The notes under the pieces: model-generated
The model's database searches: none
The model's input: the letters and a program-made list of their open reading frames with translations, nothing else
What the model was told of the DNA's origin: nothing
Source of the DNA: Oscillospiraceae bacterium
GTDB lineage: Bacteria > Bacillota > Clostridia > Oscillospirales > Acutalibacteraceae
Direction of reading: 5' to 3'
Assembly: GCA_015066005.1 (NCBI GenBank)
Contig: SVPF01000002.1
Location: 36,923 to 100,922 of the forward strand
DNA length: 64,000 nucleotides
Position numbers and translations under genes: made by a program
Part shown: piece after piece, positions 15,684-56,132 of the stretch
Layout of the letters: the number at the start of each line of letters is the position of its first letter
Numbering within the stretch: the first letter of the stretch is position 1

Positions 15684-15770
15684 TTTTAAAACTCCTTAAA
15701 GATATTTCTTTGTCTTTATTTTAACATATTTTTAATATAATTCAAGGGGGTTAATGGAAATTTTTAAATT

Positions 15771-16067
15771 GGGGTTTATCGCTTACGCGAGGTAATAAGT
15801 AAGAGGTAATAGTGAATGGGTTCGGTGTCGCTTCGCGACGGATGTAAATCGTATGTATTTAGATTGATATAACTCGTAGGGGCGATTGTTGATCGCCCGA
15901 AAGCCTTCTCCAGCGGAGAAGGTGGCGCCGATAGGTGACGGATGAGGAGAGCATTAAAGCACTTTCTTAACAATATCCTCCTCATCCACCAAACTTTCGT
16001 TTGGTCCCCCTTCTCCGCTGGAGAAGGCTAAAATTATACAATCAAACGCACCGACAAACTATAATTT
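15771..16067 (+). repeat. Intergenic modular repeat, copy A (carries a nested palindromic cassette)
   Basis: The 5' end GGGGTTTATCGCTTACGCGAGG..., the C-free tract, the GTCGC-TTC-GCGAC hairpin, the GTAGGGGCGAT hairpin and the 3' end ...GACAAACTATAATTT are shared with copies B and C. Confidence 0.75.
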
Positions 16068-16124
16068 AAAGGCAAAAACAATTTTTCCTGTTTGTGAATT
16101 TTTTAAGAATGTGTGTAATTGTAA

Positions 16125-16153
16125 TTGACATTATTTCGCTTATAATGTAAAAT
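16125..16153 (+). promoter_or_regulatory. Sigma-A-type promoter upstream of pyrH
   Basis: TTGACA (16125-16130), 17-nt spacer, TAAAAT (16148-16153). Confidence 0.5.
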
Positions 16154-19084: not shown

Positions 19085-20220
19085 TGAAAAGCTTAGTTAT
19101 ACTTGGCTCAACTGGGTCAATTGGTACTCAGGCGCTTGAGGTTTGCCGTCGTGACGGCTATAAGGTTGAAGCCTTGGCCGCAGGCGGTAATATTGAGCTT
19201 TTGGAAGCGCAGGCACGCGAATTTAAGGTAAAGGCTGTTGCGGTTTTTAACGAGCAAAGGGCTAAAGAGCTTAAAATAAAGCTTAGTGATACTGACATTA
19301 AGGTTTTAGCCGGTGCCGACGGTGTTTGCGAATTGGCTGAAATGGAAGCCGATATTGCCCTTAACTCAATTGTGGGCATTGCAGGGCTTCGCCCAACCCT
19401 TGCCGCAATTAAAAGCGGTAAGGACATTGCCCTTGCCAATAAGGAAACCCTTGTTACAGGTGGCGATATTGTTAACCGTGCCGCAAAGGAAAAGGGTGTT
19501 AAAATTTTACCTGTCGACAGCGAGCATTCGGCAATTTTTCAGTCACTTCAGGGCGCGCCAAAGGGCAGCCTTAAAAAGATTTTGCTTACAGCCTCGGGCG
19601 GTCCGTTTTTTGGTAAAACCCGTAATGATTTAGAAAACGTTACCGTAAAAGAAGCGCTTGCCCACCCGAATTGGTCGATGGGCGCAAAAATTACCATCGA
19701 TTCTGCTACGCTTATGAATAAAGGCCTTGAGGTTATTGAGGCGGTGCATCTTTTTGGGGTCGGCGCGAACGACATTGAGGTGCTTGTTCACCGCCAAAGC
19801 ATTTTACATTCAGCGGTTGAGCTGTCGGACGGCGCAGTTATAGGTCAGCTTGGCACACCCGATATGCGCCTTCCAATACAGTATGCGCTTACCTATCCCG
19901 AAAGAAGCAATTATGCTTTTGAAAAGTTATCTCTTGCTGATATTGGTACTCTAACCTTCCAAAAGCCCGACACTGAAACCTTCAGATGCCTGCCGCTTTG
20001 TATTTCGGCCATTAACGAGGGCGGTCTTCGACCAACTGCGGTCAACGGTGCTAACGAAGAGGCGGTGCGCCTTTTCTTAGAGGGTAAGATTAAATTTTTG
20101 CAAATTGCCGAGCTTGTCGAAAAAGCGGCATATTCTGTGGAGAATAAAAAAGAATTTACTTTAGAGGATATTCTTTATACCGATAAGGCTGCCCGTATGG
20201 CAGTTTTAAACAATATTTAA
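19084..20220 (+). CDS. dxr: 1-deoxy-D-xylulose 5-phosphate reductoisomerase
   Basis: 'ILGSTGSIG', 'LANKE', 'PVDSEHSAIFQ' and 'HPNWSMG'. Confidence 0.95.
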   Translation: MKSLVILGSTGSIGTQALEVCRRDGYKVEALAAGGNIELLEAQAREFKVKAVAVFNEQRAKELKIKLSDTDIKVLAGADGVCELAEMEADIALNSIVGIAGLRPTLAAIKSGKDIALANKETLVTGGDIVNRAAKEKGVKILPVDSEHSAIFQSLQGAPKGSLKKILLTASGGPFFGKTRNDLENVTVKEALAHPNWSMGAKITIDSATLMNKGLEVIEAVHLFGVGANDIEVLVHRQSILHSAVELSDGAVIGQLGTPDMRLPIQYALTYPERSNYAFEKLSLADIGTLTFQKPDTETFRCLPLCISAINEGGLRPTAVNGANEEAVRLFLEGKIKFLQIAELVEKAAYSVENKKEFTLEDILYTDKAARMAVLNNI

Positions 20221-27567: not shown

Positions 27568-27594
27568 AAAGCAGCCTTTAAGGCTGCTTTTTTT
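27568..27594 (+). terminator. Rho-independent terminator after the M23 gene
   Basis: AAAGCAGCCT-tta-AGGCTGCTTT followed by TTTT. Confidence 0.7.
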
Positions 27595-27601
27595 GGTAAA
27601 T

Positions 27602-27822
27602 GGGGGTTATTGCTTACGCGAGGTAATAAGTAAGAGGTAATAGTGAAGAGGTTCGGTGTCGCAACGCGACGGATTAAAATTGTTGATTTTATTAATTTAA
27701 TTGTATATTCGTAGGGGCAATCGGGGTAGCGATTTGTCACGTTTTTGCGGACAGTCCGGGAGGCCTGTCCCTACAAATTCTTAATATAGTTTGTGCTTCA
27801 TTATCCCGATAAACTATAATTT
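27602..27822 (+). repeat. Intergenic modular repeat, copy B
   Basis: Same 5' module, C-free tract, GTCGC-AAC-GCGAC hairpin and 3' end ...CGATAAACTATAATTT as the other copies. The 53 nt after that hairpin are identical to copy C. Confidence 0.75.
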
Positions 27823-27823
27823 T

Positions 27824-27857
27824 AAAAAATAAAAGAGCAGTCGGAAGACTGCTCTTT
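27824..27857 (-). terminator. Rho-independent terminator of fba
   Basis: The minus strand reads AAAGAGCAGTC-ttcc-GACTGCTCTTT followed by TATTTTTT. Confidence 0.65.
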
Positions 27858-36985: not shown

Positions 36986-37003
36986 TTTAAATTATAGTTT
37001 ATA

Positions 37004-38839
37004 TTACACAACTATATTGTAAATTAGATTAAATACAACACATAAAACAACCCCAAAACCTGTTGGCAGTAGAATGGATAAAAGTGTCCATTTTATGCTG
37101 GCGGTTTCTTTTTTTATTGTCAAAACTGTGGTTGAGCAGGGCCAATGGCAAAGGGTGAAAATAAGTACACTAATTGCGGTTTTAACCGTCCAGCCGTTTT
37201 CTATAAAAAGCGCTTGTGTAAATGAGAGAGAAAAGCCGTCCTGTAAAATGCCGTTTTGCATATAAGCCATTATAATTATTGGTACAACAATTTCGTTTGC
37301 GGGAAAGCCGAGTATAAATGCAATTAAAATTACGCCGTCAAGCCCTAAAAGTCGAGCAAAGGGGTCTAAAAAATCAGCGCAGTATGATAAAAGGGTTATG
37401 TCGTTTATCTTGGCGTTTGACATTATAAAAATTATAAGTCCTGCGGGGGCGGCAACTATCAGTGAGCGGCCAAGCACAAACAGGGTACGGTCAAATATTG
37501 ACCGCACAATTACCTTTAAAATTTGCGGGCAGCGATAGGGTGGAAGCTCTAGTATAAAGTTAGACGGCATACCCTTCAATACGGTTTTAGACAGTAATTT
37601 GGTGGCTAAAAAAGTGAGTATTATGCCAAAGGTAATAACTGCCGTTAAAATTATTGCCGAGGTGACCGAGCCACTAATTCCACCGCCGATTAAAAACATG
37701 GTAATAATAGCTATTATGGTTGGAAAACGGCCATTACAGGGCACAAAGGCATTGGTTAAAATTGCAAGCAAGCGTTCACGGGGCGAATCAATAATTCGGC
37801 AACCCGTTACCCCCGCCGCATTACAGCCAAAGCCCATACACATTGTAAGCGCCTGCTTGCCGCAAGCGCCGCAGCTTTTAAAGGGCTTATCAAGGTTAAA
37901 GGCAATACGAGGCAGAAAACCTAAATCCTCAAGCAGTGTAAAAAGCGGAAAGAAAATTGCCATTGGCGGCAGCATAACCGACACAATAAAGCTTACCGTC
38001 CGAAAAACGCCAAAAATTAAAGCGTTGTGAATAATTTTGGGGCAATCTAAAAGCAGTAACAGGGCGGAAAGCTCACCCTCTAACCACGAAAAGCCTTTAA
38101 ATAACAGCTCTGACGGGTAATTTGCGCCGTTTATTGTAAGCCAAAAAATAAAGCATAAAAGCAAAAGCATTAAGGGAAAGCCAAAGGCTTTGCTTGTAAT
38201 TATTTTATCGATTTTTAAATCTCGTTTTTTATAATTTTTGTTTTTGTATGTAATTATTCCATTACAAATTTCTTCGGCTCTGTTAACTGCTTCAAGCGCG
38301 GTTTCTTCATCAGCTTTAAAATCAAATTCTGTTTTCGGGTCTTGGGTTAAAACCTCATCTAATGCCAAAAGCAAGTTATCAATGGTTTTTTTATTTCGGG
38401 CCGTGGTGCCGACAACCCTTACGCCAAGTCTTTTTTCAAGCATCTTCAAATCAATTTCAATGCCGTTTTTCTTGGCTTCATCAAGCAAATTTACGCACAC
38501 CAAAGCCCTTTGACTTACGGCAATTGTTTGTAAAACAAGGGTTAAATTACGGCAAAGGGTGGTGGCATCGCACACAATGATAACCGTATCAGGCTTTTTG
38601 CTGATAATAAAATCCCGCGCAACCTTTTCTTCAAGGGAATGGGGTATAAGCGAATATGTGCCCGGTAAGTCAACAAGGCGGTAATTGTTTTTGTTGGTTT
38701 TAAAATAACCTGCGGCCGTTTCAACCGTTTTGCCTGTCCAGTTGCCCGTATGCTGCTTCATACCCGTAAGGGCATTAAAAATGGTGCTTTTGCCAACGTT
38801 TGGGTTGCCTGCAAGGGCTACGGTAAATTGTTTATCCAT
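37004..38839 (-). CDS. feoB: Ferrous iron transporter FeoB
   Basis: 'VALAGNPNVGKSTIFNALTG' G-domain followed by a polytopic membrane domain. The ATG at 38839 overlaps the feoA stop (TAATG). The track's longer ORF reads through feoA. Confidence 0.93.
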   Translation of the reverse strand: MDKQFTVALAGNPNVGKSTIFNALTGMKQHTGNWTGKTVETAAGYFKTNKNNYRLVDLPGTYSLIPHSLEEKVARDFIISKKPDTVIIVCDATTLCRNLTLVLQTIAVSQRALVCVNLLDEAKKNGIEIDLKMLEKRLGVRVVGTTARNKKTIDNLLLALDEVLTQDPKTEFDFKADEETALEAVNRAEEICNGIITYKNKNYKKRDLKIDKIITSKAFGFPLMLLLLCFIFWLTINGANYPSELLFKGFSWLEGELSALLLLLDCPKIIHNALIFGVFRTVSFIVSVMLPPMAIFFPLFTLLEDLGFLPRIAFNLDKPFKSCGACGKQALTMCMGFGCNAAGVTGCRIIDSPRERLLAILTNAFVPCNGRFPTIIAIITMFLIGGGISGSVTSAIILTAVITFGIILTFLATKLLSKTVLKGMPSNFILELPPYRCPQILKVIVRSIFDRTLFVLGRSLIVAAPAGLIIFIMSNAKINDITLLSYCADFLDPFARLLGLDGVILIAFILGFPANEIVVPIIIMAYMQNGILQDGFSLSFTQALFIENGWTVKTAISVLIFTLCHWPCSTTVLTIKKETASIKWTLLSILLPTGFGVVLCVVFNLIYNIVV

Positions 38840-45782: not shown

Positions 45783-45864
45783 TGGGTGTAAAATGAATAA
45801 ATAGCTTGTATGGGACGATGCTTACGAGGGGCTTGAAACGAGGTATAATTTGAAATACAAAGAA

Positions 45865-55263: not shown

Positions 55264-55311
55264 TTGCCTTCTTTTGTGTGGTGTGTTAAAATGTATTTGG
55301 GTGATGTTATG

Positions 55312-55773
55312 AAAAAGGCGAAAAATATTGTTTTACTTATTGGTATAATTTTAAATTTGCTTTATATCTTGTTGCAACTTTTCAGGTTTGTTTACGATTG
55401 TGTTACTGTCGTGCTTCAATTTGGTTTTGACAACTTGAGATATTTCGTATATAATGATTTTTTTCCAAGCTTAATAACCGTTGCTATAATGCTTTTGCCA
55501 GTGATTTTACTTATTTTAAACCTTAAAAACAAAGCCGGCAAAGTTTTGCCGATTATTTCGGCGGTGATGTGTGGTGCAATTGCTCTGTGGATGGTGTTTT
55601 CATTTATAACCCCTGCAATTCCGCAGTATCTTATTTACAGCAAATTAGGGCTTGTTGATACATATTTTACAATTATATTGCATTTTATCACAAGCGGTGG
55701 AATCTTGCTTTTCACGGGCTTTGCGCTTTTGACGGTTGGTAGCATAATGTCGCTCATTAAAAGCAAAGAATAG
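55312..55773 (+). CDS. Hypothetical integral membrane protein (4-5 TM)
   Basis: Hydrophobic throughout. I prefer the ATG at 55312 because the track's start at 55264 lies in the terminator tail. Confidence 0.6.
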   Translation, partial: KKAKNIVLLIGIILNLLYILLQLFRFVYDCVTVVLQFGFDNLRYFVYNDFFPSLITVAIMLLPVILLILNLKNKAGKVLPIISAVMCGAIALWMVFSFITPAIPQYLIYSKLGLVDTYFTIILHFITSGGILLFTGFALLTVGSIMSLIKSKE

Positions 55774-55776
55774 ATT

Positions 55777-55995
55777 GGGGTTTATCGCTTGCGCGAGTGA
55801 AGAGTTAAAAGTTAAGAGTGAAGAGGTTCGGTGTCGCTTCGCGACGGATTAAAATTGTTGATTTTATTAATTTAATTGTATATTCGTAGGGGCGATTCAC
55901 GAATCGCCCGTCTGTACATAGCTGTAATTTACGGACAATTCGTGAATTGTCCCTACGATGTGCCGCCAATTTAACTAAGCGATAAACTATAATTT
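55777..55995 (+). repeat. Intergenic modular repeat, copy C
   Basis: It starts 4 nt after the preceding stop codon. The ends GTTTATCGCTT / AAGCGATAAAC form the best terminal inverted repeat of the three copies. Twin mirrored hairpins lie at 55890-55909 and 55933-55952. Confidence 0.75.
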
Positions 55996-56013
55996 GAAAC
56001 TATTAATTTTTCC

Positions 56014-56132
56014 TTGACAAACGAGAAGGTTTGTGATAAACTGTATAAGCCGCATATTGTGGGCTTTTTTAAGTTGCGCCTTTTTTGGTGCACGCCTTCT
56101 GTAGCGAGACTGAAAAATAAGCAGGTGAAAAA
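56014..56132 (+). promoter_or_regulatory. Promoter plus 5' leader of the rplU-prp-rpmA operon (L21-leader-like attenuator candidate)
   Basis: TTGACA, 17-nt spacer, TAAACT. The leader then contains AAGCC-(10 nt)-GGCTT followed by TTTT. An Rfam L21_leader family exists in Firmicutes, but no model was run. Confidence 0.4.

Follow-up and report, generated by a model that had tools for sequence, protein, structure and literature searches.

Mosaic palindromes of probable REP/BIME type at intergenic sites of a clostridial contig

To our knowledge, the spread of REP and BIME sequences is poorly understood, and nearly all work on it has dealt with Proteobacteria. A REP is an imperfect palindrome of 20 to 40 bp with an unpaired GTAG tetranucleotide at one end, and a 2013 survey reported GTAG REPs from Proteobacteria, Cyanobacteria, Chloroflexi, and the PVC superphylum only (PMC3733652). 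TnpAREP cleaves and rejoins REPs, two of which in inverted orientation form a BIME (PMC6006769). In TIRYTs, or "TIRtrons," a Y1 transposase gene lies between long inverted repeats, which also constitute repeat families (Di Nocera 2013, PMC3733652). The BOX elements of pneumococci are intergenic, strongly folded, and variable in size between strains at orthologous sites (PMC3049150), and the elements described below are likewise. A search of the literature on MITEs in Clostridia and on REPIN/RAYT in Firmicutes found nothing usable.

The window analyzed here, a 64-kb stretch of a contig from an uncultured rumen member of the Clostridia, contains three copies (A, B, and C) of a modular element. 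With a probability of about 0.6, we take them to be dispersed, non-coding, DNA-level mosaic palindromes of the REP/REPIN/BIME class, with the RayT-based mechanism proposed below. An earlier note on this DNA, made from the sequence alone, had described the three copies and a set of shared modules; all three were found on the plus strand where it had placed them, and every module that it listed is common to A, B, and C. The element limits, however, lie approximately 5 nt (AAATT) further 5' than it had drawn them. Matches to the hairpin module GGTTCGGTGTCGCNNCGCGACGGAT, to the 5' end, and to the 3' end fall precisely at A, B, and C, with 0.00, 0.00, and 0.15, respectively, expected from dinucleotide shuffles; the 3' end has one extra solo match beyond these, at 36989 to 37004 on the minus strand. 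BLAST of 16 family members against the 64-kb window gave no further copies, and three additional copies are present on the same contig just beyond the window limits. The total is six copies in approximately 75 kb of contig, all intergenic, or about 1 per 12 kb, any genome-wide copy number being an extrapolation from those 75 kb. The copies share one orientation within the window, as had been claimed, but they are a local sample only: the fourth copy, approximately 1.9 kb past the window end, lies on the opposite strand. The features of the window are as follows (L numbers denote sequences outside it).

15766 to 16070, plus strand: copy A, whole element, 305 nt, between the divergent PTAC-domain gene (minus strand) and pyrH (plus strand)
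15766 to 15791, plus strand: A, terminal inverted repeat at the 5' end with the conserved bases next to it, AAATTGGGGTTTATCGCTTACGCGAG
15792 to 15818, plus strand: A, C-free purine-rich tract with a 7-nt period, GTAATAA GTAAGAG GTAATAG TGAATG, as read from the sequence
15819 to 15843, plus strand: A, small GC hairpin, GGTTCGGT-GTCGC-TTC-GCGAC-GGAT
15876 to 15899, plus strand: A, GTAG-tagged REP-like hairpin, GTAGGGGCGATTGTTGATCGCCCG, 100% identical to the L018 site-B hairpin
15903 to 16028, plus strand: A, 126-nt compound hairpin cassette (arms 96% complementary), with a small palindrome at each end, the two in inverted orientation, CCTTCTCC-AGC-GGAGAAGG
16049 to 16067, plus strand: A, 3' terminal inverted repeat, CACCGACAAACTATAATTT
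27597 to 27825, plus strand: copy B, the entire 229-nt element, flanked by the terminators of the convergent M23 peptidase and fba genes
27650 to 27674, plus strand: B, small GC hairpin, with loop AAC rather than TTC
27711 to 27774, plus strand: B, REP doublet, a degenerate GTAGGGGCAATCGGGG... arm and CGGACAGTCCGGGAGGCCTGTCCCTAC, the second arm 97% identical, inverted, to a hairpin of L012_C
27803 to 27822, plus strand: B, 3' terminal inverted repeat
36989 to 37004, minus strand: remnant of a 3' end by itself, ATATAAACTATAATTT, directly next to the FeoB stop codon; a full element is present there in sister strains
45842 to 45856, plus strand: deletion scar, GGTATAATTTGAAAT, adjoining a TetR-gene remnant
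55772 to 55998, plus strand: copy C, the entire 227-nt element, which starts at the stop codon of a gene for a 160-aa membrane protein and ends just ahead of the rplU promoter
55798 to 55824, plus strand: C, 7-nt-periodic purine tract, TGAAGAG TTAAAAG TTAAGAG TGAAGA
55825 to 55849, plus strand: C, small GC hairpin
55886 to 55910, plus strand: C, REP1, GTAGGGGCGATTCACGAATCGCCCG, identical to the RayT-embedded hairpin of L333 and L346 and to the L208 REPs
55932 to 55956, plus strand: C, REP2, in inverted orientation, CGGACAATTCGTGAATTGTCCCTAC, with four transitions relative to REP1 and its own stem still perfect
55975 to 55995, plus strand: C, 3' terminal inverted repeat, CTAAGCGATAAACTATAATTT

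At the place of the deletion scar at 45842 to 45856, L192 has an intact TetR gene and a 161-nt element.

Elements of this family measure 150 to 320 bp and are built on an outer frame, a terminal inverted repeat of 16 to 17 bp. Within the frame lie a 7-nt-periodic purine tract, a small GC hairpin, and REP-like hairpins tagged with GTAG, which are commonly arranged in inverted doublets; some elements also have a compound hairpin of approximately 125 nt. The inverted repeats that had been noticed at the ends of copy C are exact over 11 nt (GTTTATCGCTT...AAGCGATAAAC) and close the predicted fold. The repeat is nevertheless longer than first described, reaching 16 to 17 nt in L170, L329, and L098 and extending to CAAATT...AATTTG; L098 consists of the inverted repeat alone, as a 41-bp palindrome. 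In relatives the outer repeat is AAATT-GTAG-TTTATCG...CGATAAA-CTAC-AATTT, a GTAG-tagged palindrome, whose canonical GTAG/CTAC form occurs in L170, L328, L329, and one L343 allele, whereas the tags of the window lineage are GGGG/CTAT. B and C are, as had been observed, nearly identical over part of their length (97% over 77 nt, W_B1 46-122 versus W_C), the differences being two loop bases (AA versus TT). The GC content of the elements is 39 to 45%, versus 41.6% for the window.

Across the family there are 17 distinct GTAG-tagged hairpins, with stems of 7 to 9 bp, differing sequences, and conserved stem complementarity. Short palindromes with a terminal GTAG, as expected of a REP, lie at 15876 to 15899 in A, at 27748 to 27774 (inverted) in B, and at 55886 to 55910 and 55932 to 55956 (the latter inverted) in C. 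The family also has inverted REP pairs in mosaic with other motifs, as expected of a REP unit. The doublet form GTAGGG-hairpin-CCG...CGG-hairpin-CCCTAC is found in C, B (with one degenerate arm), L005, L012, L018, L194, L202, and L341, and copy A has a single REP only. Framed elements with the exact REP doublet of copy C are present in L208, a contig of 64% GC.

Like the REP, REPIN, and BIME sequences of E. coli and Pseudomonas, the window family combines GTAG hairpins that have 7- to 9-bp stems with inverted doublets and mosaics with short motifs, is extragenic, makes no target-site duplication, varies between strains in the content of its sites, and shares a hairpin with RayT-family genes, here in other contigs. 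Unlike them, it occurs in Clostridia, sets its hairpins inside a frame of long-range 16- to 17-bp inverted repeats that also encloses an additional GC hairpin and a purine tract of 7-nt period, and has GGGG/CTAT as the outer tags of the window lineage, while the related RayT genes hold a REP pair inside the reading frame, besides or in place of flanking ones. The likeness to pneumococcal BOX (boxA-boxBn-boxC), by a comparison of architecture alone, lies in a composite build, in which a variable interior is set between conserved end modules. BOX, however, varies by the count of one tandem module and makes target-site duplications, whereas the window elements have unrelated mosaic interiors, in both orientations, with no duplication and no tandem interior module. 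With the MITEs Correia/NEMIS, RUP, ERIC, and Nezha they share terminal inverted repeats, a size in the range of 70 to 300 bp, base pairing, and a non-coding position beside genes, but they differ in having no target-site duplication, no AT richness, no parent IS that could be found, and a REP tag in the repeat of relatives. TIRYTs are similar in being a Y1-linked family built on inverted repeats rather than on simple REPs, and some TIRYT repeats start with GGGG (consensus GGGGWSAS); the window 5' end, GGGGTTTATC, does not fit this consensus, and no Y1 gene was seen between a repeat pair. The view of the earlier note that the elements resemble a BOX/RUP/BIME-type modular element or a MITE is upheld, with the evidence favoring the BIME/REP end of that range because of the interior GTAG tags, the inverted doublets, and the identity of a copy C hairpin to one embedded in RayT genes.

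Y1_Tnp proteins are encoded in L219, L328, L333, and L346 (PF01797 was confirmed for the L219 protein), and several homologues are named "REP element-mobilizing transposase RayT" in their sources. In the RayT genes of these four sequences, the HUH motif is bracketed by an inverted pair of hairpins that lie within the reading frame, and the hairpin embedded in the clostridial RayT genes of L333 and L346 is GTAGGGGCGATTCACGAATCGCCCG, identical to window positions 55886 to 55910. In L333, which has 45% GC, the RayT gene is also flanked by an outer GTAG pair, and in L328 a half-element alone adjoins the Y1 gene; nowhere was a Y1 gene seen between a pair of outer inverted repeats. The peptide VGAIHESP is kept in 108 of the 120 P0249 homologues listed, which are 46 to 60% identical to P0249. 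Of 35 diverse representatives, 20 show full reverse-complement compatibility between the two peptides that the hairpins encode, versus 0 of 35 with shuffled partners. RayT homologues P0105, P0279, and P0273 come from organisms of 55 to 61% GC, and phmmer found no RayT homologue in the window or in the same-species contig open reading frames (ORFs) examined.

An unusual trait of the family is that the intergenic sites are fixed and the interiors are swapped between strains. The sites are old, and site C is occupied in relatives down to approximately 85% identity, with other interiors in L005, L006, L012, and L014. Site A has three filled alleles and one deleted allele (L203) in strains 97.4 to 97.6% identical in the flanks, and site B has three alleles among sister strains; at each of five sites (A, B, C, D, and one other), two to four unrelated interiors occur between flanks that are 96 to 98% identical. 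Homology between strains breaks at the inverted-repeat cores of sites A, B, and C, and at site A the homology to sister strains stops at 15781, inside the repeat core, and resumes at 16047. Copies at different sites share mosaic blocks of 24 to 129 nt at 95 to 100% identity, some of them inverted. The 126-nt cassette of A recurs at 95 to 96% identity in both orientations, in L015_b (plus strand) and in L014_C and L015_B2 (minus strand). The latter two occupy different sites and have near-identical interiors, with three differences, and ends that differ at several positions. Hairpin cassettes were found inside frames only, in the window and 35 related loci. Every site examined among the same-species loci showed replaced interiors, and none showed a new insertion. 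No target-site duplication was found at 11 sites, where no direct repeat longer than 2 nt flanks the elements. The search for empty sites in sister strains that the earlier note had proposed yielded only one empty allele (site A, L203), in which the element is missing together with 17 and 23 flanking nucleotides and microhomology is 1 nt at most; with those extra nucleotides gone, it looks like an imprecise deletion. Two other accounts of the mosaics were rejected: independent mobile hairpins landing in the frame, since the cassette ends next to the frame are unconserved and cassettes were never seen outside frames in this lineage, and strict within-genome concerted evolution, since a single strain combines A2 with B2, two alleles that differ in type.

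For the REP/BIME-class reading, we propose that a RayT-family Y1 (HUH) transposase acts in trans. Such an enzyme would recognize GTAG-tagged hairpins extruded from single-stranded DNA and would cut and rejoin beside them, so that modules could be copied or swapped without target-site duplication; ordinary gene conversion among many copies may add to the mosaicism. The elements would then be long-lived at neutral intergenic sites with interiors that turn over fast, and they would occasionally be lost by imprecise deletion or mark rearrangement breakpoints. A host function is not required, and an effect on neighboring genes is possible, although not indicated. Several observations count against this reading: there is no RayT gene in the window or the same-species contigs examined, the outer repeat of the lineage is GGGG/CTAT and not GTAG/CTAC, a long-range terminal inverted repeat of 16 to 17 bp is more typical of MITEs than of REPs, and the purine tract and small GC hairpin are without counterpart in described REP/BIME systems. 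The exchange of interiors could also be plain RecA-dependent gene conversion, with no transposase.

The elements are non-coding, as had been proposed: stops fill all six frames, and the copies have no ORF in common that keeps its frame. A 23-aa ORF with a GTG start is common to B and C only, and a small toxin-like ORF was rejected, being unconserved in copy A and in other alleles. The contexts are also those described previously. Copy A is flanked by divergent promoters (15745 to 15718, minus strand, and 16119 to 16153, plus strand), copy B lies between convergent genes and both of their terminators (27568 to 27590 and 27832 to 27857), and copy C, between tandem genes, comes after the stop codon at 55773 and ahead of the rplU promoter (56014 to 56042). 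A scan of A, B, and C found no promoter or terminator inside the elements; an outward promoter from the terminal TATAAT was likewise discarded, as it lacks a conserved -35 box and was not picked up by the scan.

That the modules act instead as RNA, whether as a small RNA gene, a 3'-UTR stabilizer, a terminator or insulator, or a cis-regulatory leader, we regard as very improbable. The predicted fold is very stable (z score, -6.4), but the opposite strand folds as well (-7.4), the two strands being comparable, and the slight excess of G:T over A:C among palindrome-arm mismatches (75:51) is a weak strand asymmetry. Also in keeping with an RNA are a wobble pair (T-G) that the small hairpin has on the plus strand, stops in all three frames of the purine tract of A and B, and the position of copy C right after a stop codon with no intervening terminator. 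Nevertheless, Rfam gave nothing at gathering score for the whole window and only chance-level matches (E up to 10) inside A, B, and C, the orientation relative to neighboring genes varies, and the interior is swapped wholesale within the species between flanking genes that are 97 to 98% identical. A hammerhead ribozyme (CTGATGAGG in the long hairpin) was also rejected, since the motif is one stem arm and Rfam is negative. The earlier note had kept an autonomous structured RNA in play; its caveat can now largely be set aside, because two of the three copies, A and B, are not within transcription units, both strands fold equally, no promoter or terminator is internal, Rfam has no match, and interiors are unconserved between strains.

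A classical MITE, that is, an IS derivative moved by a DDE transposase acting on the 16- to 17-bp ends, with the REP-like hairpins as passengers or later nested insertions, is a more serious rival, though still an unlikely one. It would account for terminal inverted repeats of 11 to 17 bp, which reach into the approximately 15 to 30 bp usual for MITEs, for the intergenic, non-coding, strongly folding elements of 150 to 320 bp, for the presence/absence polymorphism at site A (L203), and for the frequent assembly breaks within elements. The absence of a target-site duplication at 11 independent sites argues against it, as do the failure to find in the searched related sequence any transposase gene, or any IS or longer element bounded in this way, a GC content close to that of the window rather than an AT-rich one, and the REP tag GTAG/CTAC in the inverted repeat of relatives. 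Interiors, moreover, were replaced everywhere examined at same-species loci and new insertions appeared nowhere, and the sole "empty" site resembles an imprecise deletion. Another rival is that the sites are fixed recombination loci, at which a dedicated site-specific recombinase, an invertase- or integrase-like enzyme, acts on the GTTTATCG/CGATAAAC repeats to invert or exchange the interior, as in invertons, shufflons, and integron cassettes; we consider this quite improbable. Modules do occur in both orientations between ends of conserved asymmetry (examples are the 3' part of B2, which is the reverse complement of the 5' part of B3, and A2 versus L012_C), strain homology breaks at the repeat cores, L014_C and L015_B2 have near-identical interiors at different sites with differing ends, and some copies have variable genes 5' of them. 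However, no two same-site alleles are simple inversions, mosaic breakpoints also fall within the elements, and mirrored modules are explicable by half-loss (A2), because many elements are near-symmetric palindromes that can lose one half. The two deletion scars retain 8 and 14 to 15 nt of the 3' end, and the different lengths indicate that there is no fixed crossover point. An inverton in particular was rejected, with no simple-inversion allele pair, no internal promoter, and no recombinase gene in the Pfam lists of the neighboring genes. Integron attC sites have R'' (RYYYAAC) to the left and R' (GTTRRRY) to the right of an imperfect palindrome and form arrays next to cassettes. The window repeats, with GTTTATCG left and CGATAAAC right on either strand, have the reverse, GTT...AAC polarity, and their bases do not fit the consensus. 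Inverted repeats of the Tn3 type starting with GGGG were rejected because the 3' end has no CCCC.

Wider searches with parts of the elements gave few relatives. The small-hairpin module had only four chance matches, in high-GC genomes, in a genome-contig collection apparently without this species, and a metagenome scan that required both ends, with gaps, had 0 matches. Nearly all of the 120 metagenome matches listed for the 17-mer of the 3' end are due to chance, the real relatives being L069/L095, L089, L094, L098, L162, and L170. The 3' end had chance matches only in viral sequences, and copy A had no blastn match to plasmids.

The window family adds gut and rumen Clostridia to the range of GTAG-tagged REP-like elements and shows REP-like hairpins nested in a larger inverted-repeat frame. 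The allelic series, with the same site and ends and differing interiors in strains 96 to 98% identical, can be used to infer the mechanism of exchange, and the linked RayT genes with their covarying in-frame REP pairs suggest a direct test of the specificity of the enzyme for its hairpin. Speculatively, the sequences may belong to a large, apparently undescribed clostridial REP/RAYT system, with its own GTAG hairpin pair in the RayT reading frame on both sides of the catalytic HUH motif, in which the framed elements serve as fixed "docking" loci whose interiors are exchanged or inverted as RayT cuts and rejoins at hairpins of the GTAG type; if so, they would be a natural cassette-exchange record of REP spread, as opposed to ordinary transposition or gene conversion. 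For metagenomics, the elements matter in that they break assemblies, yield spurious ORFs (with peptides such as VGAIHESP), and mark rearrangement hot spots in metagenome-assembled genomes. Assemblies were often seen to end inside elements, and variable genes lie 5' of some copies. The G-rich strand carries five of the six copies on the contig.

The three intergenic repeats of the window are best read as mosaic palindromes of the REP/BIME class; their anatomy, their occurrence as a family, the absence of duplication at their borders, the old sites with fast-changing interiors, and the identity of a hairpin to REPs embedded in RayT genes (encoding the Y1, or HUH, REP-mobilizing transposase) are direct observations. 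An earlier note had described three copies in the same orientation, and reading of the window bore this out, a module search adding one solo end:

15766-16070, + strand, copy A
27597-27825, + strand, copy B
55772-55998, + strand, copy C
36989-37004, - strand, solo match to the 3' end

A MAFFT alignment recovered the shared modules listed in that note, namely, a common 5' end, a C-free tract, a GGTTCGGT-GTCGC-NNN-GCGAC-GGAT hairpin, a GTAGGGGC hairpin, and the 3' end CGAYAAACTATAATTT. Copies B and C, which it had called identical over about 76 nt apart from two loop bases, match at 97% over 77 nt and differ in those bases, and the inverted repeat that it had seen at the ends of copy C is exact over 11 nt. 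With chance expectations of 0.00, 0.00, and 0.15 for the modules in shuffles, the observation as a whole was confirmed. The small hairpin, 5' end, and 3' end each match solely at A, B, and C when 2 to 3 mismatches are tolerated, the exception being the solo 3' end, and BLAST with 16 family members found no further copies in the window. Two copies lie within 8.3 kb to its left and one lies 1.9 kb to its right, giving six copies in about 75 kb of contig; the G-rich strand carries five of the six.

The ends form a frame of terminal inverted repeats that reads, across copies, (C)AAATT-GGGG-TTTATCG...CGATAAA-CTAT-AATTT(G). By direct reading, the purine tract has a period of 7 nt (e.g., GTAATAA/GTAAGAG/GTAATAG); other alleles read TAATTCG/TAATGCG/TAATTCG, with TAA or GAA about every 7 nt. 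Interior hairpins are laid out as GTAG, GG, stem, loop, stem, and CC, frequently in doublets (GTAGGG-hairpin-CCG...CGG-hairpin-CCCTAC), and in the window and 35 related contigs these cassettes are found solely within frames. Stems differ among the 17 distinct hairpin versions yet remain complementary; in copy C, REP1 (55886-55910) and REP2 (55932-55956) differ by four transitions, with each local stem still perfect. Copy A has an additional 126-nt compound hairpin. The repeats had been judged noncoding, and no ORF is conserved across A, B, and C. A 23-amino-acid GTG-start ORF, MKRFGVA(T/S)RRIKIVDFINLIVYS, is common to B (27643-27714) and C (55818-55889), is shortened to 11 amino acids in A, and has no counterpart in other alleles; it is unlikely to be coding.

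At fixed sites, the elements exist as multiple alleles: three at site B among contigs with an identical fba protein and near-identical terminators, three filled alleles and one without the element at site A, five at site C, two at a further site, D, and three at an additional site left of the window. Flanks are 97.4 to 98.1% identical at A and B and 94.6 to 96.3% identical for same-species alleles at C and D, and homology ends at the inverted-repeat cores (A, 15781/16047; B, 27608-27621/27805-27807; C, 55789/55997). The interiors are mosaics of 24- to 129-nt blocks that are 95 to 100% identical to copies of other sites or strains, some of them inverted. Alleles L014_C and L015_B2, from separate sites, differ at only three positions in their interiors and at several in their ends. 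No new insertions were seen in same-species loci, and the comparison with sister strains that the note had proposed yielded one allele without the element (site A, L203), an apparent imprecise deletion that also took out 17 nt and 23 nt of the flanking sequence. Insertion and loss are both rare; the sites are old, and their interiors turn over fast. Flank identity to the window ranges from 98% to about 85% in relatives that have elements, and elements are absent in sampled relatives at about 80% identity. Exact protein matches assign the window to JGI contig Ga0318466_10001729 (158 kb; sample 3300031555), and its relatives derive from that sample series and from datasets of the ruminant gastrointestinal tract. 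The host encodes Spo0A and the rplU-prp-rpmA arrangement and has a window GC content of 41.6%, and is therefore a sporulating, uncultured Clostridium.

Two scars in the window (36989-37004 and 45842-45856) correspond to places where other strains have full elements and different neighboring genes. The solo 3' end ATATAAACTATAATTT at the former lies directly against the stop codon of FeoB; in sister strains L015 and L020, this place has a full element, a second element, an HTH gene pair, and GalK replacing FeoB, and the element therefore marks a rearrangement breakpoint. At 45800-45856, a TetR pseudogene remnant, consisting of the last ~30 nt of the gene, runs into ATAATTTGAAAT; in L192, the TetR gene is intact and a 161-nt element comes after it, and the scar resembles the product of a deletion between TTTAATTT and TATAATTT. 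A 160-amino-acid membrane-protein gene (no Pfam match) and copy C (together 55264-55998) co-occur upstream of rplU in relatives, both being present in L005, L006, L009, L012, and L014 and both absent in L007/L188 and L008/L010/L011. The more distant relative L188 has a different intergenic array 3' of a sulfatase gene (19150-19440), made up of small hairpins alternating with short words, first AGTGATATT and then AATATAACT. The ends of many metagenome contigs, including L020, L021, L023, L027, L029, and L206, fall inside elements, often in the middle of the long hairpin; assemblies of this species frequently break because of the family.

GTAG is the tag that marks REPs, and a 2013 survey reported GTAG REPs in Proteobacteria, Cyanobacteria, Chloroflexi, and the PVC superphylum (PMC3733652). 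Contigs L328 and L329 (55% GC) contain framed elements with the outer repeat AAATT-GTAG-TTTATCG...CGATAAA-CTAC-AATTT, as well as REP doublets that lie free of any frame; the 5' end of L170 shows the GTAG form, and L098 (2633-2700) has the inverted repeat alone, a 41-bp palindrome directly 3' of a stop codon. The frame itself is therefore a GTAG-tagged palindrome, of which the window lineage carries a GGGG/CTAT variant. Past the L098 palindrome lie four tandem 8-nt units ending in CTAG. Two framed elements of the family, one with the REP doublet of copy C, occur in L208 (64% GC).

Contigs of other organisms carry RayT genes with an in-frame inverted pair of GTAG hairpins around the HUH motif:

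L219, 10247-10738, - strand
L333, 2175-2690
L346, 10001-10522
L328, 10001-10603

The L219 product is a 163-amino-acid Y1_Tnp protein (PF01797; E value, 1.2e-6). At E ≤ 1e-10, it has 2476 homologues, and the names given to some of these are "REP element-mobilizing transposase RayT" and "transposase [Oscillospiraceae bacterium]." The L219 hairpins flank the motif as VGAIIDRP...MPNHIH...GRSMIAPT; another such peptide pair is VGAIHESP...RAIRESPL. Among 35 diverse RayT representatives having both peptides, the two are fully reverse-complement compatible in 20, versus 0 of 35 with shuffled partners. The embedded hairpin GTAGGGGCGATTCACGAATCGCCCG of the genes for RayT proteins P0249 (L333, 45% GC) and P0273 (L346) is identical to window positions 55886-55910, and an outer GTAG pair also flanks the L333 gene. 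VGAIHESP is kept in 108 of the 120 listed P0249 homologues, at just 46 to 60% identity. As a lead, the in-frame, covarying REP pair of the RayT genes may be more interesting. A search of contigs of the window's species found no RayT gene, and three homologues checked for origin all belong to other organisms. In L334 (10001-10519; also L335 to L337; 61% GC), the RayT gene has miaB and mutS on its two sides within a conserved order of housekeeping genes, and neighboring intergenic regions are packed with diverse CCCTAC-tagged hairpins; this fits a vertically inherited, domesticated gene.

BIMEs are built on two inverted REPs, which TnpAREP cleaves and rejoins (PMC6006769). A RayT enzyme of the host genome, acting on single-stranded hairpins, would mobilize or reshuffle the elements; the mosaics could also arise by gene conversion alone. 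The main rival, a DDE-type MITE, would explain the inverted repeats, but no target-site duplication was present at 11 sites, no parent IS was seen in the related sequence searched, and neither the GC content of the elements nor a GTAG tag in the inverted repeat fits, making this origin unlikely. Still more improbable is a recombinase-driven inversion or cassette system, since no allele pair is a simple inversion, neither recombinase nor promoter lies nearby, and breakpoints occur inside elements too. The REP/BIME kind is already known, and the window elements share BOX-like modularity; going by Rfam and the searchable literature, what is new is the family and its host range in Clostridia, the outer frame of the GTAG type with its periodic tract, and the allelic, cassette-like turnover.

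An RNA function is also unlikely. At gathering score, nothing in the window matched Rfam, and permissive scans of A, B, and C gave only chance-level matches inside the elements. The predicted fold of copy C has an energy of -79.4 kcal/mol (z, -6.4), but the opposite strand folds equally well (z, -7.4), and the ratio of G:T to A:C mismatches in palindrome arms (75:51) indicates weak strand asymmetry. No sigma-70-like promoter or intrinsic terminator was found inside A, B, or C. The promoter and terminator scan agreed with the gene contexts described earlier (A between divergent genes, B between convergent genes and their terminators, and C between tandem genes); A is flanked by two divergent promoters and B by two convergent terminators, and transcription is therefore not expected for these two copies of the three. 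The sole credible match of the permissive scans was an L21 leader (RF00559) downstream of C at 56037-56121, just below threshold (32.3 versus 36 bits); a strong sigma-70-like promoter (56014-56042) lies directly downstream of C and upstream of rplU.

The hairpin of copy C is widespread and extends to viral contigs, where the pattern GTAGGGGCGAT-N3-9-ATCGCCC had at least 120 matches; among the matches listed, contigs have 27 to 69% GC and up to 13 copies each, and the exact copy C form occurs at least 30 times. IMG/VR contigs L214, L228, and L269 contain composite repeats of about 157 nt, partly head to tail (11 to 13 hairpin matches per 12 to 13 kb), that combine GTAGGGGCGATGAAAATCGCCC with GGCTCCCTC...GAGGGAGC/GTCAGC...GCTGAC hairpins, the second hairpin type resembling cassettes of L170 and L006.
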